A stretch of DNA of 63,983 nt, filler included, from Theionarchaea archaeon (GTDB lineage: Archaea; Methanobacteriota_B; Thermococci; Methanofastidiosales; SZ-28-30): the NCBI GenBank assembly GCA_018992565.1. It is 5 parts of 5 records of this genome, joined end to end, with 100 filler letters (N's around TTAATTAATTAA, not from the genome) between each part and the next. Parts side by side here need not be neighbours in the genome. Positions count along the whole stretch, not along the records: positions 48,619 to 56,788 come from JACVGW010000101.1; 4 more parts are not named here. One strand, given 5' to 3'. The notes below the pieces were generated by a model. That model was given only the letters and a program-made list of their open reading frames with translations. It did no database searches and had not been told where the DNA came from. Made by a program: the position numbers and the translations under genes. Below are positions 1 through 56,888 of this stretch, one piece after another (within the stretch, counting starts at the first letter, position 1; the number at the start of each line of letters is the position of its first letter).

Positions 1-840
1 ATACCGGGGATCATCAAGCAAATGGTGGAAGCACTCGTCGTGAGTATTGATGATACAGTAGCGTATCTGGTCCTTCTGGCTGTGCAAGAACGTCAGCAAC
101 TCCCAGAAGGCCTCTCTGGTTTCACAGATGAATTCTCTAACCCTGATGTCATTGATAACGAAATTCTCTGTTTCAGCCTCCTTGAACGTGAAGATGAGGT
201 AGCCCTGAATGGTGTCTCCTGCCTTGTATCCAACAATACGGGTGAGGGGATCGTCCATCAACCGCTCCACTTTCCTCTTACTGGTCAACTTCATCATCCC
301 ATGTGTTCTCATGGCATATCGGTTGTAGCAGTCCACCAGAGCGCTGGTATCTTTCGCAGACAAGAAGTGGATGTGTTCTCGTGTTCTGGCTGGCAGCTGG
401 TCAGGGTGAAGACGGTACTGGTGCAGTTTTGTTCCAAATCCAAATCCCATCTCCTTATAGAAGTCGGGACGAAATGGGTACAACGAAGTCAGAAAAGACC
501 CCTTCTTCTTATAGTAATCTAGGAAAAAGGAAATCATGTCTTTACAAATTTTTTCTCTCTTGTGAAGAAGGTCAACTGCCACCAGCCCAACTCCTCCCAC
601 CAGGGTGGGTATGGAAAATACAGTCATAGTAAAGTCATAGAGTATCATTCCGCCTCTCAAGATTCCATCCCTGTACACCCCATACATGTGGGATGTGGGC
701 TCTTCATTCTGAAGTCTGAGAAGGTGATTCAACGTTCGTTCTCTCTCTTCGGGGGTGGATAGGTTCATCCTGGGGTACGCATTAGCCACAATGGTCATGA
801 AATCAGGAAGATCTTTTTCTGGTATCAGTTGAATACTCAT
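1..840 (-). CDS. Eis-family GNAT acetyltransferase (runs off the window start; not in ORF track)
   Basis: Manual translation from ATG at 840: MSIQLIPEKDLPDFMTIVANAYP...GGVGLVAVDLLHKREKICKDMI...SLYPFRPDFYKEMGFG. The VAV and LYPF..FY..MGF motifs are typical of Eis-like GNATs. Confidence 0.8.
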   Translation of the reverse strand, partial: MSIQLIPEKDLPDFMTIVANAYPRMNLSTPEERERTLNHLLRLQNEEPTSHMYGVYRDGILRGGMILYDFTMTVFSIPTLVGGVGLVAVDLLHKREKICKDMISFFLDYYKKKGSFLTSLYPFRPDFYKEMGFGFGTKLHQYRLHPDQLPARTREHIHFLSAKDTSALVDCYNRYAMRTHGMMKLTSKRKVERLMDDPLTRIVGYKAGDTIQGYLIFTFKEAETENFVINDIRVREFICETREAFWELLTFLHSQKDQIRYCIINTHDECFHHLLDDPRY

Positions 841-981
841 GATGTATGATCATCCACCGCTTTTTAACTCTTGGCGTCATGAAAGTGGAGGCTCTAGGTT
901 CTCTCCAGCAGAGATGGCTCTGAGGTCATGATGACCTCATAGCGTCTGACGGGTGATAAACTCCAACGGCATGGCAGAGTG

Positions 982-2403
982 TTACCTTCTGAGTGCGTAG
1001 AACAGGAGCACTGCACCTAGTATTATCACCGCCACCACTGCAATTCCGCCTATCAGGAGGAGGGGAAGGCTCTGAGTTGCTTCAAAGGATACTGAGGCAG
1101 AATCCATGAGACGATTGTCGATTAGAAGCTGGAAGGCAACCTGATGAACTCCTTCTGTCAGGGGGGTCATGTTGATGTGTACTTCTCTAGATTGATTCCC
1201 AGGTACGAGAAGATCAGAAACAGGATCAACTTCCACATTCGCTGCTGAAGCGGTGAGCTGATACACTGTGTCGTACTGTCCTGTGTTTGTTATCAGCAAT
1301 ATAGCAAAGGTATTCTGGTCTGTTGTGATGTTTTCAGGAGGGTACAGTATCTCCAGCTGACCAGACACAGGTTTTTCCACGCGTATGTTGACTGCTGTTA
1401 CCCCCAGTGATTGACCTTCACTGGATAGTTCAAGTTCAATGGAGTACAACCCTTTCTCTTCTGGTTGAAATTCAACATCAATCTGGATGTATCCTGCTCT
1501 GGGAATAGTGACAATGTACATGGTCTGAGGCATGTAAATCTCAGAGGGGGCAGTAGCAACTAAGACAAAATCAGCCTCCTTCTGGCTTTTGTTTCGCACC
1601 AGGACCCGAATACGACCCTTTTCGTCCACGTTCATCATGTCAGGATGGGACAAGATCTCAAGAGTGCCCTCAGCAGTCAGGACAACGGATATCGTTGCAT
1701 AGTCTATAAAGGTACATTCAGAATCAGAGTAGTAGACTACGACACTGTAGTCTCCTTCGGGGATCGACGGCATTAGGTGGGTTTCTTCCAGAATTGTCTT
1801 GGTTTCTCCTGGTTTCACAAGGACATCTTTTTCCAGAGGTGAAGTGTTGCCACCCAGAATCCCCCAGTCAATCTCGAGGTGTCCTGCATCAAACTTCTTG
1901 TTGCAGTCGGCCTCCATGTTGTTGGTGGCTGTCACCATCATGGTAATGTAGTCTCCCGGGGAGACCTGCGTCTTGTCAATATCCACAGAAAAGGTCACAT
2001 CCTCACAATTGCAGGAAGGTCTGCCAGGTATCCATATGGAGCTGGCACAGCAGACAGTGTACTGGCACTGGTCAGTGGCAATGGCACCATCAGAAATCCG
2101 TTGCGCTTGAATGTTCATGATGTGAACTCCTATGGGTAATCCCATGTATCCACAGAAGTGATGAATGCCGGCTGTGTAGTACCGGGTGCCCCAGTGATAC
2201 CAGATGTTCCCGTTCTGATCTTCCACCCAGCGAGTAACCCAGGCATCATCAGAAACCACAATCTCACCGCACACTTCCTGGCCATACCAGTACTGCAGAC
2301 CACATCCGGGGAACAGGGTAACAGTTGCAGTAAATGGTTGAGATACTACGGTATTCGAACTGAACACAAGCAAGAGCAAGGCCAATACCACGTATTTCTT
2401 CAT
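982..2403 (-). CDS. Secreted/surface protein with Cys-rich N-terminal part, Ig-like beta-sandwich repeats and C-terminal membrane anchor
   Basis: Signal peptide MKKYVVLALLLLVFSS; repeated 'V.N.G...' CARDB/Ig-like segments; C-terminal hydrophobic helix followed by RR. Confidence 0.7.
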   Translation of the reverse strand: MKKYVVLALLLLVFSSNTVVSQPFTATVTLFPGCGLQYWYGQEVCGEIVVSDDAWVTRWVEDQNGNIWYHWGTRYYTAGIHHFCGYMGLPIGVHIMNIQAQRISDGAIATDQCQYTVCCASSIWIPGRPSCNCEDVTFSVDIDKTQVSPGDYITMMVTATNNMEADCNKKFDAGHLEIDWGILGGNTSPLEKDVLVKPGETKTILEETHLMPSIPEGDYSVVVYYSDSECTFIDYATISVVLTAEGTLEILSHPDMMNVDEKGRIRVLVRNKSQKEADFVLVATAPSEIYMPQTMYIVTIPRAGYIQIDVEFQPEEKGLYSIELELSSEGQSLGVTAVNIRVEKPVSGQLEILYPPENITTDQNTFAILLITNTGQYDTVYQLTASAANVEVDPVSDLLVPGNQSREVHINMTPLTEGVHQVAFQLLIDNRLMDSASVSFEATQSLPLLLIGGIAVVAVIILGAVLLFYALRR

Positions 2404-6348: not shown

Positions 6349-8512
6349 ACAATACTTCTCAATGTTGGAAGAGCAGCTGGAAGAGCTGTACACTGTGGCT
6401 GAGAAAGCCAGGAAACAGTGGAAAGATCCTTCGCCCCACGTGGAAATCCCCAGAGCGAAAGACATGGCAGACAGAGTGGAGAGCCTGGTAGGTCCCAGGG
6501 GCATTGCTGATACTATCAGAACGCTGGACAAGGAAGGATTTTCCCGGGAAGACATTGCATTGAAGGTCATTGACCAGATAATTGAATCGGATTTCCAGGG
6601 AGAGAAAACTGCAGAGCAATGTATCAGAACCTCACTTGCCATTCTCACTGAAGGGATTGTGGCAGCTCCTCTGGAAGGGATTGCCAAGGTGAAGATCAAG
6701 TCCAACTTTGATGGCACCAAGTATATAGCAGTCTATTTTGCAGGCCCTATACGAAGCGCGGGAGGTACTGCTGCTGCCCTGGTAGTCTTGCTGGGAGATT
6801 ACATCAGGCGAAAACTCCACCTGGATGCTTTCAAGGCTTCCCAGGACGAAATTGAACGGTATATTGAAGAAATGGAGTTATACAACAGGATTACCCGCCT
6901 CCAGTATTTTCCCACCCCTGACGAAACTCGGGAAGCTCTGACACATATTCCTGTAGAAATAACAGGAGACCCCACAGAGAAAGAAGAAGTATCAGGACAC
7001 CGAAATATGGAGCGAATCGAGACTGACAGGGTGCGTGGGGGTGCTATCCTGGCTCTGGCTGAGAGTGTAATCCAGAAAAGCAAGAAAGTCTATAAATATG
7101 CAGTTAAGTTCAATATCCCTGACTGGGAGTGGTTGACAGATCTTCATACAGTATCTGCACAGGATACAACGGTGATTAGTGCCAATGAGAAGTATTTGAA
7201 AGATGTCATTGCAGGAAGACCTGTCTTCTCATATCCCATGCGGAGAGGAGGGTTCCGCATTCGGCTGGGACGATCCAGAAATACAGGGCTGGGTGCCTGG
7301 GGAATACATCCTGCCACCATGTCAGTGTGCAGCGGGTTCATTGCAACAGGTACGCAGTTGAAAACCGAAAGACCGGGAAAGGCCACTGCTGCAGCACCTG
7401 TGGATTCTATTGAAGGCCCTACCGTCTTATTGAAGAATGGAGATGTGGTCAGGTTAGAGACGTATGCACAGGCAGAAGACGTCAAAGACGAGATTGATGA
7501 GATTCTGTACATGGGGGATGCTTTGATATCATACGGAGATTTTCTGCAAAACAGCCACGTTATTCTCCCTTCTGGCTACGTCGAAGAGTGGTGGGTACAG
7601 GAGGTGCCTCTTGAGGTGGACCCATATGCTGTGAGTGAAGAGGAAGCTTTGGCCATCAGTAGAGAGCATAAGTGCCCTCTCCATCCCAGGTACACCTATT
7701 TCTGGAACTACTTGGAGAAAGAGGAACTCATGGCACTGGTAACCTGGGACAAGAAAACCTATTCCCGCCGTATGAAGGACATTCTTGAAGTTCTCGGAGT
7801 CCCTCACATGGTCAGGGAAGGACACTTCATTATTGAATCTCCAGCTTTTTTCGCCTGCTTGAATGAAGAGATGTTCAACCCAGATCTTCCTGTCCTGGAG
7901 GCTGTCAGTGAGATGGCAGGGTTCCCCGTCAGAGCAAAGTGCTGTTATACCGTAGGTGTGAGAATGGGCAGACCAGAGAAAAGCAAGTACAGGGTTATGT
8001 CTCCCCCTGTTCATGTGCTCTTCCCTGTAGGAACTCACGGTGGAAAAACTCGAAACATGGTGAAAGCAGGCCATCGCGTTATTGATGTGGATGTGGTCAA
8101 CCTGGAATGCCCCCGATGTGGGGAGATCACCTACAAGCGAACCTGTCCAAAGTGCGGATCAGTAACTGAGCTCTTCAAAACCTGCACCAACAGATCCTGT
8201 TCCGTAGACAAGATTAAAACTGAGTATGATCTGTGTCCTGCCTGTAATTTGCCACTGCAATTGTACTCACGCAAAAAAGTTAATATAGCTGAGGAATTGA
8301 GCCAGATTAAAGAGAAGGTGCCTGAACAGGTGAAAGGAGTCATTGGTATGACTTCAGCATATAAGTTCCCTGAACCTGTTATGAAAGGTGTTCTCAGAGC
8401 CCGAAACAAGGTGTATGTGTTTAAAGATGGCACCATTCGATTTGATGCAACTGATCTCCCGCTAACGCATTTCACCGCCAGGGAAATCGGAGTATCACTG
8501 GAGGAATTGAAG
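6338..8512 (+). CDS. polC: DNA polymerase II (PolD) large subunit DP2, truncated by gap
   Basis: YFAGPIRSAGGTA, GGFRIRLGRSRNTG, RMGRPEK, FKDGTIRFD motifs and CxxC zinc ribbons. Confidence 0.97.
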
Positions 8513-8612
8513 NNNNNNNNNNNNNNNNNNNNNNNNNNNNNNNNNNNNNNNNNNNNTTAATTAATTAANNNNNNNNNNNNNNNNNNNNNNNNNNNNNNNN
8601 NNNNNNNNNNNN
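8513..8612. other. Assembly gap with TTAATTAATTAA linker
   Basis: N run with all-frame stop linker at 8557-8568. Confidence 0.97.
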
Positions 8613-9010
8613 GGCAGAGAGTGGGGACAGGATACATTGAGTTCCACAATGTCAGCTCCCGATTCTTCCATCATTGCTGCTACCAGCGAAAACTCTTCTT
8701 GTGAACGCCCAAAAACAGAGGCAATAACAGGGACACCACCCTTTTTTGCCATTTCGATTTCCTCTGCGAACTGTCTGCATCCTGGGTTGGGTAACCCCAT
8801 GGCATTGAGCACAATATCCTCTGATATATGCAGTACGGTAGGGTTGTTGTACCCTTCTCTGGGCTCAACCCCGATGGATTTAGTGGTTACAGCTCCTGCA
8901 CCGCTTTCTGCCACACGCTGCAGGAGAGCCCCTTTCGTTCCCAGAATGCCAGATGCCAGTACTAAGGGATTCCTCAGGGGTATGCCGCACAGACGAGTAG
9001 ATACGTCCAT
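8613..9010 (-). CDS. pyrD: Dihydroorotate dehydrogenase (family 1B), 3' part lost in gap
   Basis: LRNPLVLASG, GAVTTKS, NAMGLPNPG, ELNVSCPH motifs. Confidence 0.93.
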
Positions 9011-9753
9011 TACATCTCCTTTATTACATTGTTGATAAGGGCTTGATAGTCGTGTGCCCGTTCTGCAGGGTTCTCATGAGTAATAATATCTCTGGATACA
9101 TTGACCATAGTCCTCTCTTTGAAAATCCTTACAATATCAAGTCCTCCACCCTGTGCCCCGACACCAGGAGCGAGGATTAGCTGTTTGGTGAGTATAGCAT
9201 GTATCTTTTTGATGTCCTCAACTTCACAGGTAGCCCCTACCACTGCTCCCAGCCCATTGGAGGCAGCCACCTGGTTGGCAGTGAATTCATAACCTGAAAT
9301 CCCCTGGACCACTCCCTTCATGAAATAGTCTGCTTCAGGGTTGGACATCAATGTCAGGGTAATGATCCCCAGCCCATAACGTTGAGCAACATCAATAGTC
9401 TCTCTGATATTGCCGGGGAAGGGACTGTAGGTCAGAGCATCAAATCCCATGCTGCTCAGCCAGAAAAGGGCAGCCCTGTTGGTGGACCCAATGTCTGACA
9501 GCTTGTGGTCTGAAATACTCAGACATCCTCTGCGATGTATGAGGTCATTCAATGCCTTGATCTCTGAAAATCCCATGGGCAACACATACTGAGTGTTGGG
9601 CTTGTAGCAAAAACAGAAATCTGATGTCTTTTCCACAATGTCAGAACAGAAATCCAGAAGGTCATCAGGGCCTCCTGTTTCAGGGGAAGGATCCAGCCCA
9701 ACGCACAGCTGGCTTTTTTTCTCTCTCATAGCTGCCATGAACTTCTCTCTCAT
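9010..9753 (-). CDS. pyrF: Orotidine-5'-phosphate decarboxylase
   Basis: LCVGLDP, YKPN, DHKLSDIGST, VVGAT, PGVGAQGG, NVSR motifs; probable leaderless start at 9753. Confidence 0.93.
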   Translation of the reverse strand: MREKFMAAMREKKSQLCVGLDPSPETGGPDDLLDFCSDIVEKTSDFCFCYKPNTQYVLPMGFSEIKALNDLIHRRGCLSISDHKLSDIGSTNRAALFWLSSMGFDALTYSPFPGNIRETIDVAQRYGLGIITLTLMSNPEADYFMKGVVQGISGYEFTANQVAASNGLGAVVGATCEVEDIKKIHAILTKQLILAPGVGAQGGGLDIVRIFKERTMVNVSRDIITHENPAERAHDYQALINNVIKEM

Positions 9754-9955
9754 GAACTGACTAGTTATTACAGCATTAAAAGGCTTTTTCTTTCTTTCCA
9801 GTACCAATGACTTCGTCACCTTCCGCAGTCCATGACATCTCACAGCACAGCTTTTTCCCTAATCAGTTGATGTGTAGGTTATAACTGGAAGGATTTCAAG
9901 AAAAAGGGAGATAAATCCAACGGTTCATTTATAAACACTGCAATCAATTAAAGGT

Positions 9956-10285
9956 ATGCGGGGAAGAAAACGATCCCTCAAAGGTTATCCTCCGTGCGAC
10001 CGGTGTGGAAGCTCAGCAGACGTGGTGGCCTATGGAAAGAGGGTAAACAAGCACGGTTCAAAACAGACGTACTTCTGCAGGAGTTGCGCGCACAAATTTA
10101 CCCCGGATGACGGGTTCAAAGGAAGACGCTTCCCCTCTGAGGTTATCAGGGCTACCATCAATCTCACACAGAAGGGATTGACCCTGAAGCAGGTAACAAA
10201 ACACATAAAGAATGAATTCGGTATAGGTGTGAGTGAATCAACTGTCCTTGACTGGATCAATGCTTATACTACAGGAAAAGAATGA
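9956..10285 (+). mobile_element. Transposase N-terminal fragment (Zn ribbon + HTH, IS6/IS1-like), no DDE domain
   Basis: CxxC...YG.R.....KQ.Y.CxxC...F then 'GLTLKQV...FGIGVSESTVLDWI'; stops before any catalytic domain; no terminal inverted repeats seen. Confidence 0.65.
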
Positions 10286-10352
10286 CTCTTTTTGTAACCA
10301 CTTGGTTAGAATAATGTTCTCCGACTTGAACAGCAAGCAACTATGTCTCGTG

Positions 10353-10787
10353 TCATGTGGGGGAGAGCCTGTAATGTATCGTCTTGGAAAAAGGTTGAAA
10401 CCCAGCTTTTTCATATAGTGTCCGGGCAACTATATTGCCCTCAGTTGTGCTGATGAAAATGGTCACAGGCCTGGTCCTCAGTTCATTTATTGCATACTCC
10501 AGCAAACGGGTCCCTATGCCCCTGTTCTGATAGTCTTCCAGGATATGCAGTTCTGTAATATAGGCGTACCGTTTAGTTTTTCTGTCAAACCATGGGTTTT
10601 CCCCAATGAACCAGTACAGGAACCCCGCGTAGTCACCATCAACTTCTGCTATCCTCAGTCCTTCCAAAGGGATTCGTTTCAGCTGCTCTTCACTCCCAAA
10701 TGGATCCCAGGGGCTGTCTCCTGGTCCAAAATGGGTAATAATATCCTTGAAATCATGGGGGTTCCCCTGTCTGATTGTCACTGTCAT
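10353..10787 (-). CDS. GNAT family N-acetyltransferase
   Basis: YQNRGIGTRLL acetyl-CoA motif and N..A..LYEKAGF. Confidence 0.9.
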   Translation of the reverse strand: MTVTIRQGNPHDFKDIITHFGPGDSPWDPFGSEEQLKRIPLEGLRIAEVDGDYAGFLYWFIGENPWFDRKTKRYAYITELHILEDYQNRGIGTRLLEYAINELRTRPVTIFISTTEGNIVARTLYEKAGFQPFSKTIHYRLSPT

Positions 10788-40195: not shown

Positions 40196-40295
40196 NNNNN
40201 NNNNNNNNNNNNNNNNNNNNNNNNNNNNNNNNNNNNNNNTTAATTAATTAANNNNNNNNNNNNNNNNNNNNNNNNNNNNNNNNNNNNNNNNNNNN
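40196..40295. other. Assembly gap with TTAATTAATTAA linker
   Basis: N run with linker at 40240-40251. Confidence 0.97.
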
Positions 40296-48518: not shown

Positions 48519-48618
48519 NNNNNNNNNNNNNNNNNNNNNNNNNNNNNNNNNNNNNNNNNNNNTTAATTAATTAANNNNNNNNNNNNNNNNNNNNNNNNNN
48601 NNNNNNNNNNNNNNNNNN
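48519..48618. other. Assembly gap with TTAATTAATTAA linker
   Basis: N run with linker at 48563-48574. Confidence 0.97.
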
Positions 48619-48674
48619 GGGATTACCTGTATTAGGCCCCAGATTCTAAGATGATGAAGACGGAGGAGAACCCC

Positions 48675-50018
48675 ATGAGTGATATCAGTATAGTCAACGC
48701 CTCGCAAGTGGAGCACGGGCAGGGTGCGATTCCTGTTGGTCCGCTGCTCATCAGTGCTGTCCTCGAAGATCATGGATACAGCACTCGATTCAAGGACTAT
48801 CAAACCTTCCAGGCCCAGAAAAAGCTCAGCTTCAAGACCTTCTATAAATTCATCCAGGGCACGGAAAGCGTCATAGGAATAAGTGCTATTAGCAGCGATC
48901 TCCCTACCACGCTAGGCGCAATCACGCAGCTAAAGGAGGAACATCCAGAGAAAATTGTGATCTTGGGAGGACCCGGTCCAACAGACATTCCCGCAGAGAT
49001 ACTGGAGCACTTCCCGGTGGACATTATTGTGGTAGGTGAGGGCGAAGAGACAATTGTGGAAGTAATGCAGGCCCTTGATAAGAAAGAGAACCTTGAGGGC
49101 ATAGAGGGCATTGCGTACCGGGACAACGATCGCATTGTCATTTCTCCTCGGAGGAAGCGTATCCAAAATCTTGATTCTTTGCCATTCCCCGCTTACGATA
49201 AAATCGAATTCAAAGACTACAACTATTTAGGAGGAGTAATGACAATCAGGGGATGCCCCTACAGATGTACATTCTGCAGCGCTCATTCGGTATGGGAAAG
49301 AGAGATCACTCAGAGAACCGTGGAGAATGTCATAGAAGAGCTCCAGATCCTGAAAGAAAAGAGAGTCAGGAACATGTTCATCTATGATGACACCTTTGTA
49401 ATAGATTCACAGCGAGTCAAGAGGTTTGCTGAGCAATTTCACCAAGAATCAATTGATATTCCGTGGACCTGCTACGGAAGAATCAACCTCATGACGTCAG
49501 AGCTGCTGGAAATCATGGGGAAGAATGGGTGTAAAGAGATACTGTATGGAATTGAATCTGGTTCAAATAATGTTTTGAAGAGAGTGAACAAAAAATTCAC
49601 TATTGAAGAAGCATCAAGGATTGTGGAGAAGACAACACAGTACACAGATGTTGAAACGTCATATATCTGGGGATACCCCTTTGAAACTCTCGAAGATTTC
49701 TACGACACACTGATGGTAGTTTTCCACCAGACACACCTCCCTCGTGTAAGGCCACGGCTTGCTCTGCTTTCGCCTTTGCCAAAATCCGCTATTTTCTTGG
49801 AATATAGGGCCCAGATTGCATTTCCTGACGATCCTGAAATTGCACATCGTCTTGGATTTCTCCTGGGCAGAGAAAAACTCCTTGAATACCCTGAGGTAGT
49901 CGCACTGGTGAAGAGACATCCCGGGCTCTTCCCATCCTTCTATTACTTCTCTCATGATTTGCTAGAGCAGAAGCTGGAGCTATTCAAAACCATGGAGCAG
50001 AACCTATCACGGGCTTGA
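48675..50018 (+). CDS. Cobalamin-dependent (class B) radical SAM enzyme, putative RiPP methyltransferase 3
   Basis: B12-binding Rossmann domain (ILGGPGPT, VVGEGEET); RGCPYRCTFC; GIESGS; GGAGGAG before ATG at 48675. Confidence 0.9.
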   Translation: MSDISIVNASQVEHGQGAIPVGPLLISAVLEDHGYSTRFKDYQTFQAQKKLSFKTFYKFIQGTESVIGISAISSDLPTTLGAITQLKEEHPEKIVILGGPGPTDIPAEILEHFPVDIIVVGEGEETIVEVMQALDKKENLEGIEGIAYRDNDRIVISPRRKRIQNLDSLPFPAYDKIEFKDYNYLGGVMTIRGCPYRCTFCSAHSVWEREITQRTVENVIEELQILKEKRVRNMFIYDDTFVIDSQRVKRFAEQFHQESIDIPWTCYGRINLMTSELLEIMGKNGCKEILYGIESGSNNVLKRVNKKFTIEEASRIVEKTTQYTDVETSYIWGYPFETLEDFYDTLMVVFHQTHLPRVRPRLALLSPLPKSAIFLEYRAQIAFPDDPEIAHRLGFLLGREKLLEYPEVVALVKRHPGLFPSFYYFSHDLLEQKLELFKTMEQNLSRA

Positions 50019-50134
50019 GAGTCCTGACTTCCAGGTCCACCTGGAATCCAGAAATGGATCAGAGATGGCACCAGTGGAATCAACCTAGCTTTCTCTTGAA
50101 ATCCTGCTGCTCTTATCTGATTTCGCCACACATT

Positions 50135-50152
50135 GAAAAAGAAAAAAAAGAA
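50135..50152 (-). terminator. U-tract terminator after MFS gene
   Basis: Plus-strand gaaaaagaaaaaaaagaa reads as a poly-T tract on the minus strand about 15 nt after the stop at 50167. Confidence 0.6.
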
Positions 50153-50166
50153 GTCAGTGACTCCAA

Positions 50167-51414
50167 CTAGAGTTCTCTGATGCCTGGCACGAGAGAGATG
50201 CTGATTCCCCCAATGATCAATGCAGTGCCGGAGATGAGCAGCATGGTAACAACAGATGTCAAATCAATGAGAGTGCCCATGACTGCATATGATAAGGGGA
50301 CCAGGGCCATGGTCATGGTAACATAGACGCCAAAGACTTTGCCACGTTTCTCATTTGGGGTCAGCGTTTGCAGAAGAGTAATAATAACGATCTCTCCAAA
50401 CCCGCTGATGATCCCCTGAATAGCCATGAGAGCCATAGCAAAGTAGAAGTTTATCACCGTGCCAATTCCCAGCAGAGTCACCCCTGCCACAATAGGGAAT
50501 AAGATGAGAATTCTAGATTTATTTTCTATCTTCGGCTTAACAGCAAGAATGAAGGTCGATACCAGAATGCCCAGAGAATCCGCACTAATGAGGAGCCCGT
50601 ACGCCAGATCACCCATATGATAGTACGTTTCAGACAGAATCTTGAACACGATCACCAGGGGTGCTGCAAAGAATGTCATTGCTCCCAGGACTATGATAAT
50701 ACCCAGGATGGGCTTTTTCTCCAGAATGAATCCAAATCCTTCCTTCATATCGGCGAGAACGTGCTTTTCCGGACCTTCACGTCTGACAAGAGGTATTGTA
50801 ATGAAAGACTCAGAGAACGCAGAGAACAGAAATGATATTCCATTGATTATGAAAGCTAAAGGAACTCCGAGGGTTACCACCAGAATGCCTCCGATTGCAG
50901 GTCCTATAACGCCAGAAATCTTTGAAGTGATTCCTATCAGACTATTCGCACGATTTAGCTCCTCTTCAGGGACAATAGTTGGAATAGATGCTCTCAGGGC
51001 AGGATTGAAAAACACCTGAGCTATCGACATGATGACTGTTCCCACGTAGAGAACAGGAAGTGTCAAGGTGTCACTGATGACAAGCCATCCCAAGTACAGG
51101 ACAACGATTCCTCGCACTGCATCCATCCACACAATGAGGTTCTTGCGGCTCCACCTGTCTGCGTAACTTCCTGCTATGGGCCCCAAAAAGACCTGTGGGA
51201 TTACCATCATCATCAAGACAGTTCCTGTTACCGCGGCAGACCCTGTCTCTGCAATGACAAGAGAGACCAGAGCAAGGAGATAGATCCAATCTCCCGCCTG
51301 AGATACCCCCTGTCCTGCCCACAGGAGCAAGAAGTTCTTGTCCCTGAGAATACTGGATTTTTTCTTCTCTTCTGTTCCTTCTTTGTTTGGATTTTCTACT
51401 CCCGTAGAATCCAT
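50167..51414 (-). CDS. MFS exporter (DHA3/MefA-like)
   Basis: NFLLLWAGQGVS..GD, GSYADRWSRK, 12 TM helices, RGKVFG. Confidence 0.9.
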   Translation of the reverse strand: MDSTGVENPNKEGTEEKKKSSILRDKNFLLLWAGQGVSQAGDWIYLLALVSLVIAETGSAAVTGTVLMMMVIPQVFLGPIAGSYADRWSRKNLIVWMDAVRGIVVLYLGWLVISDTLTLPVLYVGTVIMSIAQVFFNPALRASIPTIVPEEELNRANSLIGITSKISGVIGPAIGGILVVTLGVPLAFIINGISFLFSAFSESFITIPLVRREGPEKHVLADMKEGFGFILEKKPILGIIIVLGAMTFFAAPLVIVFKILSETYYHMGDLAYGLLISADSLGILVSTFILAVKPKIENKSRILILFPIVAGVTLLGIGTVINFYFAMALMAIQGIISGFGEIVIITLLQTLTPNEKRGKVFGVYVTMTMALVPLSYAVMGTLIDLTSVVTMLLISGTALIIGGISISLVPGIREL

Positions 51415-51416
51415 GA

Positions 51417-52295
51417 TTACACCTCCTTTGAACTGGCAGGAATTGAGAAAACTCTGCCTCCTCTCGTATACATGGTCATCTCATGAGGAGCATTCCCAGA
51501 TAGATGGAGAGTGAGGGAATCCTGCTCAAAGTCGCGCATTAAAAACATGATACCGTGTGGTACGTCAAATGCCAAAAACCCCTTATGGGTTGCCTGTGAG
51601 ACGTCCAATCCTTCAATGAGAATCCAGTAGGTGGTCTCAATTGCACGTCTGAGATGTATCTCTGTTACAATGTCCAGTGATATGGGGCTGCCTTCCTCCA
51701 CATTGACAATCACATCATCCTGGACTTCAATTGCAGTTGCCAATGTGCGTACATCTGAATCTCCTGTGGTTGGAGACAGAGAAGTAGCTCCTTGAGAACC
51801 GAATCCCTGAAGAAAGGCGAGATAACTGAGAAATGCACTACTATAGTATATGGAAAGTGCGAGAAAGAGCACGTTCAGCAAAATGTTTACCGCAATCCCT
51901 GAAAGTCCACGTCTCAGAAGGAACGTAGCTGAAGAATGGACGGGATGATCCTCTGCTATTTCCGTACGCATATTAAAGAGCAACAGGGGGTTATGGTAAT
52001 TATACAAGAGCTGTGTTTTTGTCTTGCATCCCATGGATCGTAAGACAACAACATGTCCCATCTCATGCAGAAAGGCTGCCAGAAAAAGACCACCATATGT
52101 CACTGGGATCACCAGCAATAACCTAGAGAGAGACGGTGTTGAAAAGGAGGAGACGATCTGAAATAGCATAACGCTCAAGGGTATTCCCATGAGGAGGACA
52201 CCTGTTGCTTTGCCGTATACAGGATGCGAGAGAAAAGAAGCTATTAAAATCATTACTCTAATGTGGAAAGGATACTTCCCGGCGGTGTAGTTCAT
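51417..52295 (-). CDS. Membrane zinc metallopeptidase-like protein (M50/site-2-protease-like) with C-terminal soluble domain
   Basis: LHEMGH after a TM helix; SGIAVN where M50 has 'AGP..N'; downstream P...DSD. Confidence 0.65.
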   Translation of the reverse strand: MNYTAGKYPFHIRVMILIASFLSHPVYGKATGVLLMGIPLSVMLFQIVSSFSTPSLSRLLLVIPVTYGGLFLAAFLHEMGHVVVLRSMGCKTKTQLLYNYHNPLLLFNMRTEIAEDHPVHSSATFLLRRGLSGIAVNILLNVLFLALSIYYSSAFLSYLAFLQGFGSQGATSLSPTTGDSDVRTLATAIEVQDDVIVNVEEGSPISLDIVTEIHLRRAIETTYWILIEGLDVSQATHKGFLAFDVPHGIMFLMRDFEQDSLTLHLSGNAPHEMTMYTRGGRVFSIPASSKEV

Positions 52296-53692
52296 TCCTC
52301 TGATCCCCCTTTTCCCTCAAAGTTCTGCTTCTTCTCCAGAAGTTCTTTCTCACTTTCAACCTCCCAGATTTTCCAGTCTATTTTTGAAATTGTCTCCAAT
52401 TTCTGTCTGAACTCCGGGTGATCATAGTAGTAGAAACTTGAAAAAACCTGCGGATATTCCTTGATCATTTCAGTGACATGAGGATAGCTCTTCAAAGACT
52501 GTTTAATTGGCAACCCCCCTGCTCTGGATTGAATTGAGGGGTCAAACCGTATGAGGTGGCTGTACTCCTGGAAAATAGGTGAACTGGGCAATGGAGAGAG
52601 AAGTGACATCTGGGTTACTGCTTTCTTCAGGCGAATGTCTTCTCCCATGGACATCAGGGTATCATAGAACTCTTCGAGTGACGAAAATGGAAATCCCCAG
52701 ATATATGAAGTCCGCACTCGTTCAAAATCGTAGGTCACTGTCTTCCGTATGACCTCCCGTGCCTGTTCTATAGTATGCCCTTTATGCAGTTTCTGGAGTA
52801 CTCTATTTGATCCCGACTCAACACCATAAAAGAGCTGGAAACATCCTGTTTCAGAGAGCTTGGTTAAGAGCTCATCATCCATTAACGTTATTTTTCCATT
52901 GCATGTATACGGAAGATCCACTCCTTCGCCACGGATTGCATCTATAATATCCATGGCACGGGATTTCTGTATGACAAATGTGTCATCAAGGAATCCAAGC
53001 ATGATGGAATCATCTGCCACCTGGAGGACTTCTTCAACAATATTCTCCACTGACCTGTACTCCATGTGACGCTGCCAGATTGAATGCGCACTGCAGAACC
53101 CACAGTCATAGGGGCACCCACGGGCGCTCATGATGCAAGCAAGCCGCTGATAGTCAGCAAAATTGACGTGATGATATGCAGGGAAAGGGAGTGAATCCAG
53201 GTCCTTGATTCTCTCTCGTGGTGGAGTAGTTATGACCTTGCCATTGTCTCTGTATACGATACCCTTAACCGTGTCCAGGGGAGTTCCCTCCTGCAGGGCT
53301 TCCATCAATTCTACAGTTGTGTATTCACCTTCTCCCATCACGATAACGTCCACGGGATACTCCTCCAAGATGCTCCCTCCTACATCCGTTGGAGCAGGTC
53401 CTCCCAGAATCACCAGCGTATCCGGGTGTTCTTCCTTCAGCTTCACCACAGCCCCAAGAACTGTGGGAAGCGCATTGCAGATGACGCTGATTCCCACGAT
53501 GTCTGAGGTGGGGTTCATGAAGGAATAGAATTCATTGGGGTCAGGGTGGCGTGTGGGGTCATGGAGCTGATAGTCTCTAAAATCCACCGAAAACCCCTTC
53601 TCTTCCAGAATGGAGACTATTCTCAGGGGTCCAATAGGAAGACCTGGCCGATATTCACCAAATCCAGAGTTTAAAATTAATATATCACTCAT
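52292..53692 (-). CDS. Cobalamin-dependent radical SAM enzyme, putative RiPP methyltransferase 2
   Basis: ILGGPAPT, VMGEGEYT, RGCPYDCGFC, GVESGS. Confidence 0.9.
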   Translation of the reverse strand: MSDILILNSGFGEYRPGLPIGPLRIVSILEEKGFSVDFRDYQLHDPTRHPDPNEFYSFMNPTSDIVGISVICNALPTVLGAVVKLKEEHPDTLVILGGPAPTDVGGSILEEYPVDVIVMGEGEYTTVELMEALQEGTPLDTVKGIVYRDNGKVITTPPRERIKDLDSLPFPAYHHVNFADYQRLACIMSARGCPYDCGFCSAHSIWQRHMEYRSVENIVEEVLQVADDSIMLGFLDDTFVIQKSRAMDIIDAIRGEGVDLPYTCNGKITLMDDELLTKLSETGCFQLFYGVESGSNRVLQKLHKGHTIEQAREVIRKTVTYDFERVRTSYIWGFPFSSLEEFYDTLMSMGEDIRLKKAVTQMSLLSPLPSSPIFQEYSHLIRFDPSIQSRAGGLPIKQSLKSYPHVTEMIKEYPQVFSSFYYYDHPEFRQKLETISKIDWKIWEVESEKELLEKKQNFEGKGGSEE

Positions 53693-55026
53693 GAAGATCC
53701 CTCCTTCTTCTCTCTTTCCCTTATTTTATCAATCATTTTGCATTTTTCCTCAAATCCTTCATTCTCATAGTAGTAGAATGAGCTGAAAACGTCTGGATTT
53801 CTCCTCACCAGATCTTCCAGTTCAGGGTAACCTCTCAGTCTTTCAGGAGGAGGCAGTGTAGAGCCATTATATGTATTGTCCAGCATGAACTTGAGTGTAT
53901 GAGAATACTCACTGTACAGTGTTGTGGACTGAAATGGCGTCACCAGCGTCATTACCGGCTGGACTCCTGACATCTGGACATCTTCCATCTGAAACATCAC
54001 AGTATCATAGAAATCATCCAGAGACTCTCCAGGAAATCCCCACATATATGATGTGTAAACTCGATCGAAATGTTGATTCGCCCTTACAATGTCCTGTCTC
54101 GCCTCTTCTGGCTTGAATTCTTTCCGTATCTTCTTAAGGATAGAACTAGACCCTGATTCTATTCCCAGAAAGAGAGTATCACACCCGGCATGACTCATGG
54201 ATTCCATGAGCGAGTCCGGCAACATACCGACTCTGCCAGTACAGGACCAGTTCTTATCAATGCCTTCTTTCTTGAGGCTCTCGCAGAATTCCACCACCCG
54301 TTCTTTTTCTAGAACGAAGGTGTCATCAGACAAATTGATCCTGTCAATCTTATCCTCGATTTGCAGCAATTCATCTATAACATTCTCAACAGAGCGTAAC
54401 GTCTTTCTGCTCTTCCAGATGGACTTGACACAGAACGTACACTGGAATGGACAACCCCGGGCAGTAATGACATTTGCCTCTTTCCTGTATTCTCCAAAAT
54501 CGATATGATGATAGGCTGGAAAAGGCACAGAATCCAGATCGACAATTCGCTGCCGCTCCGGTGTGGTCACAATGTTGCCGTTGTCTCTATAGCAGATACC
54601 ATTCACAGAGCTGAGGGAATCTCCCCTGTCAAGAGCCTCCATGATCTCCACAATAGTCCTTTCACCTTCACCCACAACTGCTATATCAACCGCGGAGAGT
54701 TCCAGAAGGCGTTCAGTACTCACCGAGGCAGCTGGTCCTCCAAGTATGACAGTAACATCATGGCTCTCTTTCAGAAGACTCACAGCCTTCAGTACGGAAG
54801 GTAGTGCATTGCAAAAGACACTGATACCCAGAACAGGCGCAGAAGATTCCATGAAATGTGAGAGCACTTCCGGATCTGCCTTTCTTTTCACATCTTCGTT
54901 CTGATAGTCTGTAAATTCAACGGAATACCCGGCTTCTTCCAGAGACGCTGCAATGTACAGGAGGCCAATGCCCAACTGCCCTCTGCCTGCACCAATCACT
55001 GAATTCATCAGAGTAATATCTGTCAT
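53689..55026 (-). CDS. Cobalamin-dependent radical SAM enzyme, putative RiPP methyltransferase 1
   Basis: ILGGPAAS, VVGEGERT, RGCPFQCTFC, GIESGS; likely start MTDITL at 55026 (ORF track gives 55047). Confidence 0.9.
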   Translation of the reverse strand: MTDITLMNSVIGAGRGQLGIGLLYIAASLEEAGYSVEFTDYQNEDVKRKADPEVLSHFMESSAPVLGISVFCNALPSVLKAVSLLKESHDVTVILGGPAASVSTERLLELSAVDIAVVGEGERTIVEIMEALDRGDSLSSVNGICYRDNGNIVTTPERQRIVDLDSVPFPAYHHIDFGEYRKEANVITARGCPFQCTFCVKSIWKSRKTLRSVENVIDELLQIEDKIDRINLSDDTFVLEKERVVEFCESLKKEGIDKNWSCTGRVGMLPDSLMESMSHAGCDTLFLGIESGSSSILKKIRKEFKPEEARQDIVRANQHFDRVYTSYMWGFPGESLDDFYDTVMFQMEDVQMSGVQPVMTLVTPFQSTTLYSEYSHTLKFMLDNTYNGSTLPPPERLRGYPELEDLVRRNPDVFSSFYYYENEGFEEKCKMIDKIREREKKEGSS

Positions 55027-55047
55027 TCCTATCTCCTCTTTCTTCAC

Positions 55048-55323
55048 TCAGACCGTCACAAGACTCTTGTTTTTCAAGTCCTCAATCAATTCTATGGTGT
55101 CAGCCAGGACTTCATCAAACGAGGGAGCACCCTCAATCGTGGTGTGAATCTCCTGCGCAATCTCTCTGATGGTGCGATCACCAGTGCACTGGTTCCATAT
55201 TTCGCGTCCCACTTCGTTAACCACAAAATACTGGGCAGTCATCACGTTGAAGAGGGCCAGATCATCCCCCTGTTCACGTGGCCGGACATGTGCAACTCTT
55301 TTTGGTTTGGCTGTATCTTCCAT
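55048..55323 (-). CDS. Stand-alone PqqD-family RiPP recognition element (RRE)
   Basis: 91 aa; 'YFVVNEVGREIWNQCTGDRTIREIAQEI...DTIELIEDLKNKSLV' fits the PqqD pattern N..G..IW...dG..T..EI...L....L. Confidence 0.9.
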   Translation of the reverse strand: MEDTAKPKRVAHVRPREQGDDLALFNVMTAQYFVVNEVGREIWNQCTGDRTIREIAQEIHTTIEGAPSFDEVLADTIELIEDLKNKSLVTV

Positions 55324-55328
55324 TCATT

Positions 55329-56435
55329 TCACCTCATACACTCTATTTCCTCACAGATTCTCCCGACAGGATAGTCTTCACAAATCTCTGCGTATTCCTT
55401 CCCTGGATCCATGGCCGCTATGGGACATGGCACACATTCCTTGGGGAAAAAATCACATTCGTCACACCTGGGGAGATATTCTGCTATCACATTTGGAGAC
55501 TGCATATAAAACAATCGTTCAAAATCCTCAGAACATAAAATATCGACAATTCCATTCTCCAGGAGACTGCTGCCACGACTGACATATACATCATGATTCT
55601 TGAGGGTGAGGTCCGGGAGAGCACCTTTACAAGGAAAAGCAGTCCCGTCAGCACGGATGAAGATGGTTGACGTGGTCGCCCCACATTTCTTTGGTTCTAT
55701 TGGCAGGTGGATGCCATACTTCTCATTCAAATATTCAATCAAAGGGGGCATGGCAAATAACATAGTGACAAATTCACAATTCATATCAAGTTCAAGAAGG
55801 GTCTCAATAACAGTTTCAGCAAGATGGATGAATTCCAGAGGAGAAAGGATGACACTCCGTTCCATGGTAGCTGCATTTCCCTGATATGACAGCATCTCCA
55901 AAATGACACGAGTGAAATTCATGTCCTTTGCCATTTTGATAAGTGTAGTAACCTCATGAACATTCATTTTGGAAACAACCACATCCATCACCAGTGAATC
56001 CAGAGAATGCGTGGCCACAGCTGAGACATTTCCCACTACCTTGTCGAAATTACTTCCCCTGCGAATGTATGAATAGGTCTCTCTAGAAGCTCCATCAATA
56101 CTCACTGCAACGCCCTTGAGCCCTGCCTCAATAAGAGACTCCAGCAACTCCTCAGTGAGAAGGAGTCCATTCGTGATAATAAACGGGGCTGAATTCCTGT
56201 TCTTTACCTGCCTTACTATCTGTGGAAGGTCTTTCCGAAGCAGCGGTTCGCCTCCGAACATTCCCACATTCGCGATTGGTAGAATACACAGGTTTTCCAG
56301 AACACACATCATGTTCTCTGTGGACAGCTCTGTTTGGTTTCCTCTATACAGAGACGTTGCATAACAATGCCTACAATTAAGGTTACAACGTGGAGTGACA
56401 TCCCAGTCTACAAAGCTCAATCCACCTTTGGCCAT
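55329..56435 (-). CDS. Radical SAM/SPASM-domain peptide maturase
   Basis: CNLNCRHC, GGEPLLR, TNG, VSIDG; SPASM cysteines CGA...IRADG..FPC and CDEC......CVPC plus distal Cys. Confidence 0.9.
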   Translation of the reverse strand: MAKGGLSFVDWDVTPRCNLNCRHCYATSLYRGNQTELSTENMMCVLENLCILPIANVGMFGGEPLLRKDLPQIVRQVKNRNSAPFIITNGLLLTEELLESLIEAGLKGVAVSIDGASRETYSYIRRGSNFDKVVGNVSAVATHSLDSLVMDVVVSKMNVHEVTTLIKMAKDMNFTRVILEMLSYQGNAATMERSVILSPLEFIHLAETVIETLLELDMNCEFVTMLFAMPPLIEYLNEKYGIHLPIEPKKCGATTSTIFIRADGTAFPCKGALPDLTLKNHDVYVSRGSSLLENGIVDILCSEDFERLFYMQSPNVIAEYLPRCDECDFFPKECVPCPIAAMDPGKEYAEICEDYPVGRICEEIECMR

Positions 56436-56514
56436 TACATCACTTTCTTTCGCTTTCTAATCCGTATCTTTGGCGTTCAAAGAATCCTTTGTCAGTGAAT
56501 ACTTCTCTTTGCAT

Positions 56515-56540
56515 AAATAAAAAAAATAGAAAGTAAAGAA
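56515..56540 (-). terminator. U-rich terminator/attenuator between precursor and maturase genes
   Basis: Minus strand reads TTCTTTACTTTCTATTTTTTTTATTT about 20-45 nt after the precursor stop. Confidence 0.55.
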
Positions 56541-56557
56541 GTACTACATTGGTTGAT

Positions 56558-56644
56558 CTAGTATGGCACGGCAGGCAGGCTGATGAGCCACTTGTCTGCT
56601 GTAATCCTTACAGTAATTTCTTCTAATCTGGGCTTTGCGTACAT
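56558..56644 (-). CDS. Putative RiPP precursor peptide, 28 aa: MYAKPRLEEITVRITADKWLISLPAVPY (not in ORF track)
   Basis: ATG at 56644 to TAG at 56558; AGGAGGTGA ribosome site 6 nt upstream (56651-56659); YxxPxL leader motif; first gene ahead of the SPASM and RRE genes. Confidence 0.85.
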   Translation of the reverse strand: MYAKPRLEEITVRITADKWLISLPAVPY

Positions 56645-56713
56645 AAGTATTCACCTCCTTTCATTTTGTACTACAGAATCTAAGACTGATTCTGTTGTTA
56701 GAATTACCCTAAA

Positions 56714-56730
56714 GTATTTATAAGCTTTTC
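56714..56730 (-). promoter_or_regulatory. BRE/TATA promoter for precursor and RiPP operon
   Basis: Minus strand GAAAAGCTTATAAATAC about 70 nt upstream of the precursor ATG. Confidence 0.65.
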
Positions 56731-56762
56731 CATTATTTACAGGATTAATCTCCTTTTATATA

Positions 56763-56780
56763 GAAAAAGGTTTATAGATA
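56763..56780 (+). promoter_or_regulatory. Divergent BRE/TATA pointing into the gap
   Basis: GAAAAAGGTTTATAGATA immediately before the contig end. Confidence 0.45.
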
Positions 56781-56788
56781 ATTCAAAG

Positions 56789-56888
56789 NNNNNNNNNNNN
56801 NNNNNNNNNNNNNNNNNNNNNNNNNNNNNNNNTTAATTAATTAANNNNNNNNNNNNNNNNNNNNNNNNNNNNNNNNNNNNNNNNNNNN
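56789..56888. other. Assembly gap with TTAATTAATTAA linker
   Basis: N run with linker at 56833-56844. Confidence 0.97.

Follow-up and report, generated by a model that had tools for sequence, protein, structure and literature searches.

What does an archaeon make with a set of radical S-adenosylmethionine (SAM) enzymes that stands behind a reading frame of only 28 codons? The question is raised by a locus in the genome of a Theionarchaea archaeon (GCA_018992565.1; a genome bin of 154 contigs and 2.8 Mb, 88% complete with 1.6% contamination), which we analysed within a 63,983-nucleotide stretch of joined contigs, here called the window. The locus lies at positions 48619-56788, which is exactly contig C73 (8,170 bp), and its genes fill the whole contig. 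On the minus strand these run in the order 28-codon open-reading frame (ORF), SPASM-type radical SAM enzyme, PqqD-type protein, two B12-binding radical SAM enzymes (a and b), a membrane protein with an HExGH motif and a major facilitator superfamily (MFS) transporter, and a third B12-binding radical SAM gene (48651-50018, plus strand) converges on this run. ORF calling returned all eight reading frames where the original prediction, made from the sequence alone, had placed them, together with the tight packing it described: ATGA overlaps at 53689-53692 and 52292-52295, genes elsewhere only 5 nt or 2 nt apart, and a spacing of 21 nt up to the ATG (55026) of the first B12 gene. That prediction saw a pathway for a peptide made on the ribosome and modified after translation (RiPP), and our analysis supports it: the peptide is conserved, the seven parts are co-inherited, and neither of two outcomes set beforehand as evidence against it, loss of the small ORF from homologous clusters or grouping of the enzymes with lipid or cofactor families, was observed. 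Five other locus types, one archaeal, three from Bacillota and one from metagenomes, carry these genes together with a homologue of the small ORF, which is more than chance would bring together, and we regard the locus as very probably an operon for a RiPP of an unnamed family.

The precursor gene (56558-56644, minus strand) encodes the 28-residue peptide MYAKPRLEEITVRITADKWLISLPAVPY, with an N-terminal YxxPxL motif and the invariant residues D17-K18 and S22, and is single-copy in the genome. A Shine-Dalgarno sequence, GGAGGTGA (56651-56658, minus strand), ends 6 nt upstream of it, and this octamer stands 5-7 nt before the precursor start in four of the four loci examined as DNA (the window and relatives L001, L002 and L005). 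Compared with L001, the Theionarchaea relative, 13 codons differ, 11 of them synonymously (including the stop codon) and 2 non-synonymously; in the other two sense frames the synonymous counts are 0/12 and 0/13, and the antisense frame that shares the wobble positions gives 9/13, as geometry predicts, and is without a ribosome-binding site. These comparisons indicate that the ORF is a real gene, under purifying selection in its own frame.

When 1.84 billion representatives were searched with a profile built from five precursors, seven matches came back at E ≤ 1e-3, six of which are peptides of 27-51 amino acids (aa); the seventh, a 1,721-aa LPXTG surface protein with DUF5978 repeats (P0128), was dismissed as a spurious repeat protein. 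Ten distinct precursor peptides align without internal gaps, with Y2, P5, D17, K18 and S22 invariant and E9 and A16 nearly so. All ten carry the lasso-type motif Y2-x-x-P5-x-[LIV]7 and begin 0-2 residues ahead of its Tyr. In an alignment of nine of them, positions 7, 10, 12, 14, 19, 20 and 21 are hydrophobic in every peptide, positions 8, 11 and 15 in none and position 13 in two. Two subtypes are seen, ITADKWL[ILV]S[LI] in archaea and Bacillota and [IV]KADK[IL]xMS in the clade of the metagenomic locus L005, and this division agrees with the two principal clades in the tree of the SPASM enzyme. No NCBIfam family model matched any of four precursors at E ≤ 10. The small ORF was kept in the homologous clusters (ten peptides, five invariant residues), and the same genes with a short YxxPxL ORF, which had been proposed as a check, were found in all five other locus types. 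The description of the precursor as Cys-free holds for the window peptide; other members carry Cys at non-conserved places.

Among genome contigs, two of 16 pattern-matched stretches were confirmed as relatives, L001 (Theionarchaea, 82%) and L002 (a Clostridia metagenome-assembled genome, 34%). Metagenome contigs yielded four near-identical loci (L003-L006, at 43%), of which L005 was annotated in full and the other three were read for the precursor, and genome sampling around the genome of L002 added L020 (genome G287) and L023 (genome G809). Every locus type examined (L001, L002, L005, L020 and L023) contained the seven-part set of small ORF, SPASM enzyme, PqqD, two or more B12-binding radical SAM genes, HExGH membrane protein and MFS transporter. 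Gene order was kept in four of the five, with the MFS gene upstream in L023, whilst L005 is rearranged, its precursor being followed by PqqD and four B12 genes ahead of the SPASM gene. As L020 is flanked by housekeeping genes, the minimal cluster consists of the seven genes.

At E ≤ 1e-50, three of 133 genomes of the archaeal phylum matched, two of them true orthologues, and in Bacillota 2/401 genomes matched in the order sample and 3/401 in the phylum sample, two of the latter true; the distribution is sporadic, typical of secondary-metabolite clusters. Two genomes that passed this threshold proved to hold other systems. In G131, a genome that shares the taxonomic class (195 bits; locus L017, contig C36, ~6611-10406), a purine-biosynthesis operon has a different module inserted in it, made up of a 473-aa radical SAM protein, a FemAB-like protein and an MFS transporter. 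In G755 (188 bits; locus L024, contig C46, 9721-11208) a 495-aa radical SAM protein with a fused C-terminal PqqD domain adjoins a 723-aa beta-propeller protein, and no small ORF of the family type was found near the fusion. Archaeal ownership rests on three bins that are independent of one another, namely L001, G032 (a genome from the same genus) and a Methanofastidiosia contig of 142 kb; this contig and another of 283 kb encode identical or 67-76% identical counterparts. The label 'archaeal' in the original prediction stands for this locus and is too narrow for the cluster, which also occurs in three Bacillota genomes. We read the cluster as a new RiPP family that is not restricted to archaea, and its presence in both archaea and Bacillota points to inter-domain transfer.

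Contig C73 is a continuous assembly. A public 13.7-kb contig from another assembly covers all of it with 0 differences, so it is not a chimera; the stretch is covered by contigs from four DNA runs and by no listed RNA run, and its G+C content (0.44-0.46) matches the rest of the window. The window itself is a chain of contigs C69, C70, C72, C73 and C88, joined by spacers at 8513-8612, 40196-40295, 48519-48618 and 56789-56888, each made of 44 N, TTAATTAATTAA and a further 44 N, and 100-N gaps also occur within contigs C70, C72 and C88. Because the contigs are joined, gene neighbourhood across the joints carries no meaning, and the HMA-domain gene (47893) and the NAPRTase gene (57014), which lie on other contigs, are not true neighbours of the cluster. 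Contig ends bound the cluster on either side, so the claim that the pathway is largely complete rests on the relatives, where the seven-part set recurs.

The SPASM-type radical SAM enzyme (55329-56435, minus strand; 368 aa; Pfam Radical_SAM and Fer4_12) has no RiPP recognition element (RRE) of its own. It carries CxxxCxxC at residues 17-24 (C17/C21/C24) and seven C-terminal Cys that are invariant in 15 sequences (C269, C324, C327, C334, C337, C352 and C361), in the pattern Gx4C, then CxxCx6CxxC, then two more. In the domain check PqqD, Radical_SAM and B12-binding all exceeded their Pfam cut-offs, and SPASM fell slightly below it in the window enzyme (19.8 bits vs 21.5) and reached 25.7 bits in the L001 orthologue. 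The predicted structure (predicted local distance difference test, pLDDT, 87.4) has its best full-length fold matches in SkfB and SuiB, then BlsE, PqqE and CteB, and also matches anSME. The sequence profile, searched against PDB sequences, ranks GDGT-MAS first (101 bits), then PqqE, MoaA and SkfB, whilst the best NCBIfam scores are MoaA 109, PqqE 101, MftC 79 and Tes 76 bits, all far below cut-offs. The family is compact: 15 database clusters score 248-736 bits with the next match at 156, and the 15 members are monophyletic against the next-best matches (support 100/100).

Between the SPASM and B12 genes lies a discrete PqqD-type RRE (55048-55323, minus strand; 91 aa; PF05402 44.6 bits vs a cut-off of 23.4), and a PqqD-type domain is present in all five other locus types. 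By profile, TbiB1, a lasso RRE, is its closest match (E 4.3e-4), and PqqD comes next (E 0.022).

Each of the three B12 enzymes exceeds the cut-offs for both PF02310 (N-terminal B12-binding) and PF04055 (radical SAM), and CxxxCxxC is found in each of the 13 cluster paralogues. Enzyme a (53689-55026, minus strand; motif CPFQCTFC) has 445 aa from the ATG at 55026, its ORF extending to a GTG at 55047; enzyme b (52292-53692, minus strand; B12-binding and Radical_SAM domains) has 466 aa; enzyme c, encoded by the convergent gene, has 455 aa, and its start lies 33 nt from the contig edge. The best NCBIfam score of all three is to ApyD (NF050148; 167-172 bits vs a cut-off of 750), with BchE, HpnJ and QCMT behind it at 110-138 bits and far below every cut-off. 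In a tree of 17 cluster paralogues (an unrelated 629-aa L001 enzyme was left out), orthogroups a and b are each found in five loci, archaeal as well as all three from Bacillota (support 100/99), and thus predate the archaeal/Bacillota split of the cluster. Gene c, an accessory gene of the archaeal lineage, is confined to the window and L001, where its orthologue has the same position; it is absent from the three Bacillota loci, and its grouping with paralogue 5 of L005, which lies within the operon there, is weak (83/85). Loci differ in their number of B12 genes, from 2 to 5. With ApyD the best family for the B12 enzymes and SkfB and SuiB the best folds for the SPASM enzyme, the enzymes did not fall into lipid or cofactor families.

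The membrane protein (51417-52295, minus strand; 292 aa) is the proposed leader peptidase, with a divergent core like that of site-2 proteases (family M50). Four weak lines of evidence agree on this. Pfam Peptidase_M50 (PF02163) matches below threshold (20.0 bits vs 27.2, E 4.8e-4), and gave no match in the L001, L002, L005, L020 and L023 orthologues. HExGH (77-81), N137 and D181 are invariant in ten sequences, D181 being a putative metal ligand. VIA-align, over residues 55-192 of the predicted structure (pLDDT 80.3), finds RseP 7w6z (Z 9.4), SpoIVFB 8vjl (9.2), RseP 9j83 (8.2) and MjS2P 3b4r (8.1), values of 8-9 being middling by its own note; identity to the M. jannaschii site-2 protease is 24%. 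Finally, Atlas leads to M50 with a score of 0.87. When the PDB was searched with the model by Foldseek, nothing matched at E ≤ 0.001, and weak generic matches came solely from the C-terminal beta-sandwich (residues 189-292); the protein family is tiny, with five clusters by word search including that of the window. Taken together, the lines suggest a divergent site-2 protease. The neighbouring MFS transporter (50167-51414, minus strand; 415 aa; MFS_3/EntS-like) is the proposed exporter, with Pfam matches to MFS_1 (1.3e-40) and MFS_3 (1.9e-26) and scores of 237 bits to TIGR00900 and 129 bits to EntS, both below cut-off.

We propose the following pathway. The RRE would bind the N-terminal Y-x-x-P-x-[LIV], as lasso B1 proteins do, and bring the peptide to the enzymes, which themselves lack an RRE. 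B12 enzymes a and b, joined by c in the window archaeon, would each methylate unactivated carbons of conserved aliphatic residues, and the SPASM enzyme would carry out one more radical modification within the conserved segment 17-23. A cross-link comes close to an even chance for this change, an epimerisation is conceivable though rather improbable, and some other reaction would account for the remainder. The intramembrane metalloprotease would then remove the leader within the membrane and the MFS transporter would export the product. In lasso leaders YxxPxL spans -17 to -12, according to the available text of PMC10368454. If Y2 sits at -17 here as well, cleavage would follow D17-K18 and leave a hydrophobic 10-mer, WLISLPAVPY, as the core; we hold this boundary to be an evenly balanced proposition. 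Under it the cores of the relatives would have 8-12 residues with the invariant Ser at core position 4. The LPP family, which is not a lasso family, uses this RRE motif too, with a long stretch of conserved leader behind it, as the accessible part of PMC13381572 describes.

Several points weigh against this pathway, besides the sub-threshold Pfam score and middling Z values of the membrane protein. None of the cluster enzymes comes near the cut-off of any named NCBIfam family, so homology does not allow a reaction to be assigned to them, and B12-binding radical SAM enzymes also catalyse non-methylating chemistry (preprint 10.1101/2023.10.30.564719, in its available text). The strongly conserved 10-23 stretch could itself be the core, which would put K18 inside the product, and the membrane protein could be an immunity protein rather than a leader peptidase. 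Contig C73 also ends 144 nt upstream of the precursor, where further cluster genes are possible.

The main alternative, which we consider unlikely, is a small peptide of proteusin or epipeptide type, with residues 1-9 as leader and 10-23 as core, a SPASM epimerase placing D-residues at I10, V12 and I14, side-chain methylation by the B12 enzymes and a short membrane-active product. The i, i+2, i+4 aliphatic pattern (positions 10, 12 and 14 hydrophobic in 9/9, 11 and 15 in 0/9) would suit such an enzyme: PoyD epimerises in a strict 1,3 pattern, PoyC is a B12-binding radical SAM valine C-beta methylase, and epipeptide clusters pair a radical SAM epimerase that has an extra iron-sulphur cluster with an intramembrane M50 protease (all from the portions available of PMC8326336 and PMC10885120). 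However, a leader that binds the RRE or the protease as a beta-strand would account for the alternation equally well, a leader of nine residues would be unusually short, and EpeE has one auxiliary cluster, whereas seven C-terminal Cys are conserved here. Moreover, no epimerase family was among the best 25 of 79 NCBIfam matches, a comparison that had EpeE and PoyD outside its range.

Much less probable is a composite locus, in which the SPASM enzyme and PqqD alone would act on the peptide and the B12 enzymes would modify something else, for instance a lipid or small molecule that leaves through the MFS transporter. The SPASM profile finds its best PDB sequence match in GDGT-MAS, an archaeal lipid enzyme, the B12 enzymes match the HpnJ, HpnR and ladderane-lipid families at 77-135 bits, and the number of B12 genes varies. 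Yet these lipid-family scores are far below cut-offs, and as a fold GDGT-MAS reaches a TM score of only 0.48 against 0.6-0.7 for RiPP maturases. Genes a and b are translationally coupled through the ATGA overlaps and co-inherited with the peptide in five loci from two domains of life, and in L005 PqqD stands directly ahead of the four B12 genes rather than the SPASM gene. That the product is instead a cytoplasmic peptide-derived cofactor in the manner of PQQ or mycofactocin, as the logic of small peptide, PqqD and SPASM enzyme, the place of PqqE among the best sequence and fold matches and the V-P-Y end of the window precursor (loosely like the C-terminal V-Y of MftA) would allow, is scarcely credible, given PqqE, MftC and PqqD scores all below cut-off (101 vs 381, 79 vs 265 and 21 vs 46 bits), a C-terminal Tyr in only 2/10 peptides, no PqqB/C- or MftD/E/F-like genes at any locus and a membrane protease and MFS exporter conserved at all of them.

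How the proposed exported, C-methylated peptide relates to characterised systems can be seen feature by feature. The discrete B1-type RRE, the N-terminal motif and its form, [Y/W]xxPx[L/V/I/F/A], which is the lasso/LPP leader motif, are shared with lasso peptides and LPP, and LPP loci additionally resemble the cluster in the long conserved stretch after the motif and in encoding a non-B2 peptidase (PMC13381572, in the part available). Unlike lasso pathways, the cluster has no Thr at -2 and has radical SAM chemistry instead of a cyclase and B2 protease: neither a lasso cyclase (C) nor a B2 cysteine protease was found among the genes of C73, L001, L002, L005, L020 and L023. Unlike LPP, it has no kinase, nucleotidyltransferase or SipW-type peptidase. 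Proteusins such as polytheonamide, with the B12-binding radical SAM C-methyltransferases PoyB and PoyC and the epimerase PoyD, share the use of several such enzymes on one Val/Ile-rich peptide and the alternating-residue pattern; their leaders, however, are long and nitrile-hydratase-like whereas the peptides here have 27-30 aa, PoyD lacks a SPASM domain and brings an RRE with it (PMC8326336, as far as its available text goes), and the cluster has no LanM-like, N-methyltransferase or hydroxylase gene.

Epipeptides (epeXEPAB/yydFGHIJ of Bacillus subtilis), compared here by description only, likewise have a small precursor, a radical SAM enzyme with an extra iron-sulphur cluster, an M50 protease thought to cleave the peptide and help its export, and a dedicated transporter (PMC10885120 and PMC8326336); they differ in having no RRE, no B12-binding radical SAM enzyme, an ATP-binding cassette (ABC) rather than an MFS transporter and a 32-aa leader. 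Daptides combine an intramembrane site-2 protease and an RRE with short precursors rich in branched aliphatic residues, but their RRE is fused to the protease, their leader motif is ELExMEAP, their C-terminal Thr is invariant and the available text of the preprint (10.1101/2023.03.08.531785) mentions no radical SAM enzyme. Aminopyruvatide ApyD, the best curated family for all three B12 enzymes, is a RiPP peptide C-methylase that makes beta-methyl-Tyr (preprint 10.1101/2023.10.30.564719, from the text available); it has 645 aa with its own RRE, against 445-466 aa without one here, and the apy cluster uses P450 and MNIO enzymes, neither of which occurs in this cluster. Finally, the PQQ (PqqA/D/E) and mycofactocin (MftA/B/C) pathways share the set of peptide, PqqD-type chaperone and SPASM enzyme, but here the scores are below cut-off, cofactor-tailoring genes are lacking and an export module is present.

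The cluster thus joins a lasso-type RRE and leader, multiple B12-binding radical SAM enzymes as in proteusins and an intramembrane protease as in epipeptides and daptides, and is a member of none of these. It falls outside the lasso, proteusin and epipeptide classes because it has no cyclase or B2 protease, no nitrile-hydratase-like (NHLP) leader and no ABC transporter, and because all equivalog cut-offs were missed. The earlier statement that it matches no RiPP class bears up in this sense, that it fits general families and no named one. We found no description of the cluster family in the literature searched or in curated models, a search that had supplementary tables, including those of the radical SAM compendium PMC10288494, outside its scope. 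The features that the original prediction had presented as exotic are less so: M50 proteases act in RiPP maturation as EpeP of epipeptides and TglG/TmoG of pearlins (available text of PMC10885120), daptides have their fusion of RRE and site-2 protease (available text of preprint 10.1101/2023.03.08.531785), and YxxPxL leaders have RiPP precedents too.

Genome mining often yields such families, and nothing in this one breaks a rule. To our knowledge, few archaeal RiPPs have been characterised and B12-binding radical SAM peptide methylases with known substrates are rare. With some hesitation, at rather less than an even chance, we suggest a new RiPP class of Theionarchaea/Methanofastidiosia and a few Bacillota, in which a hydrophobic peptide of ~8-12 residues, with several C-methyl groups and one additional radical SAM modification, is brought in by way of a lasso-type leader and freed within the membrane by a site-2-type protease; if so, this would be the first multiply C-methylated radical SAM natural product assigned to an archaeon. 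The product may act on membranes or as a signal. Next to the Clostridia cluster, and divergent from it, L002 encodes a 436-aa regulator with HTH_3 and TPR domains (543-1853, minus strand) whose nearest solved relatives are the peptide-pheromone receptors ComR and PlcR; we set aside a role in quorum sensing, as this likeness is weak (E 5e-6 to 3e-5) and the regulator is not conserved in L020 or L023. A substrate of 28 residues with two to five paralogous methylases in clear orthogroups offers a compact system for the evolution of C-methylation site selectivity. The family would also extend the lasso-type RRE/leader code to a radical SAM pathway and give another example of peptide maturation that involves a site-2-type protease.

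Around the precursor gene, the DNA carries further candidate signals. A TATA-like box, CTTATAAATA (56714-56723, minus strand), lies within a 60-nt block that the DNA alignment shows to be near-identical in L001, and is a putative archaeal operon promoter. In the 5' leader, an 8-bp inverted repeat, ACAGAATC ... GATTCTGT (56673-56695, minus strand), keeps its stem in L001, where one A-to-G change gives a G-U pair and the loop has diverged; its folding energy is unremarkable (z -0.3 and -0.75). After the precursor stop codon a conserved block (56514-56554, minus strand) ends in a T8 run (56519-56526), directly 3' of which similarity to L001 collapses; the block is likely a partial transcription terminator between precursor and enzyme genes. 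A hairpin and T-run directly 3' of the MFS stop codon (50141-50164, minus strand) mark the likely end of the operon.

Upstream of the cluster in L001 (58-9248) are a SPASM fragment, two GNAT proteins, a PAS histidine kinase, a 458-aa protein and the 629-aa B12-binding radical SAM enzyme, which has no CxxxCxxC match, and a subtilase gene lies downstream; these may belong to a second cluster or be accessory genes beyond the short contig C73. The host genome as a whole returned 62 radical SAM/SPASM profile matches and 22 matches to the PqqD domain, of which 17 exceed the Pfam cut-off; many lie side by side in runs of genes (e.g. C119:10900-15490, C13, C110, C30, C140 and C28). For an archaeon, such a number of candidate peptide-modifying clusters is unusually high, and the genome may be a wider source of such pathways. 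Elsewhere in the window, on contig C72 (45601-46812, minus strand), an OppC-type ABC permease has an N-terminal zf-RING_2 match below cut-off (residues 3-46, E 5e-5), a fusion of RING-like domain and permease that would be odd if real.

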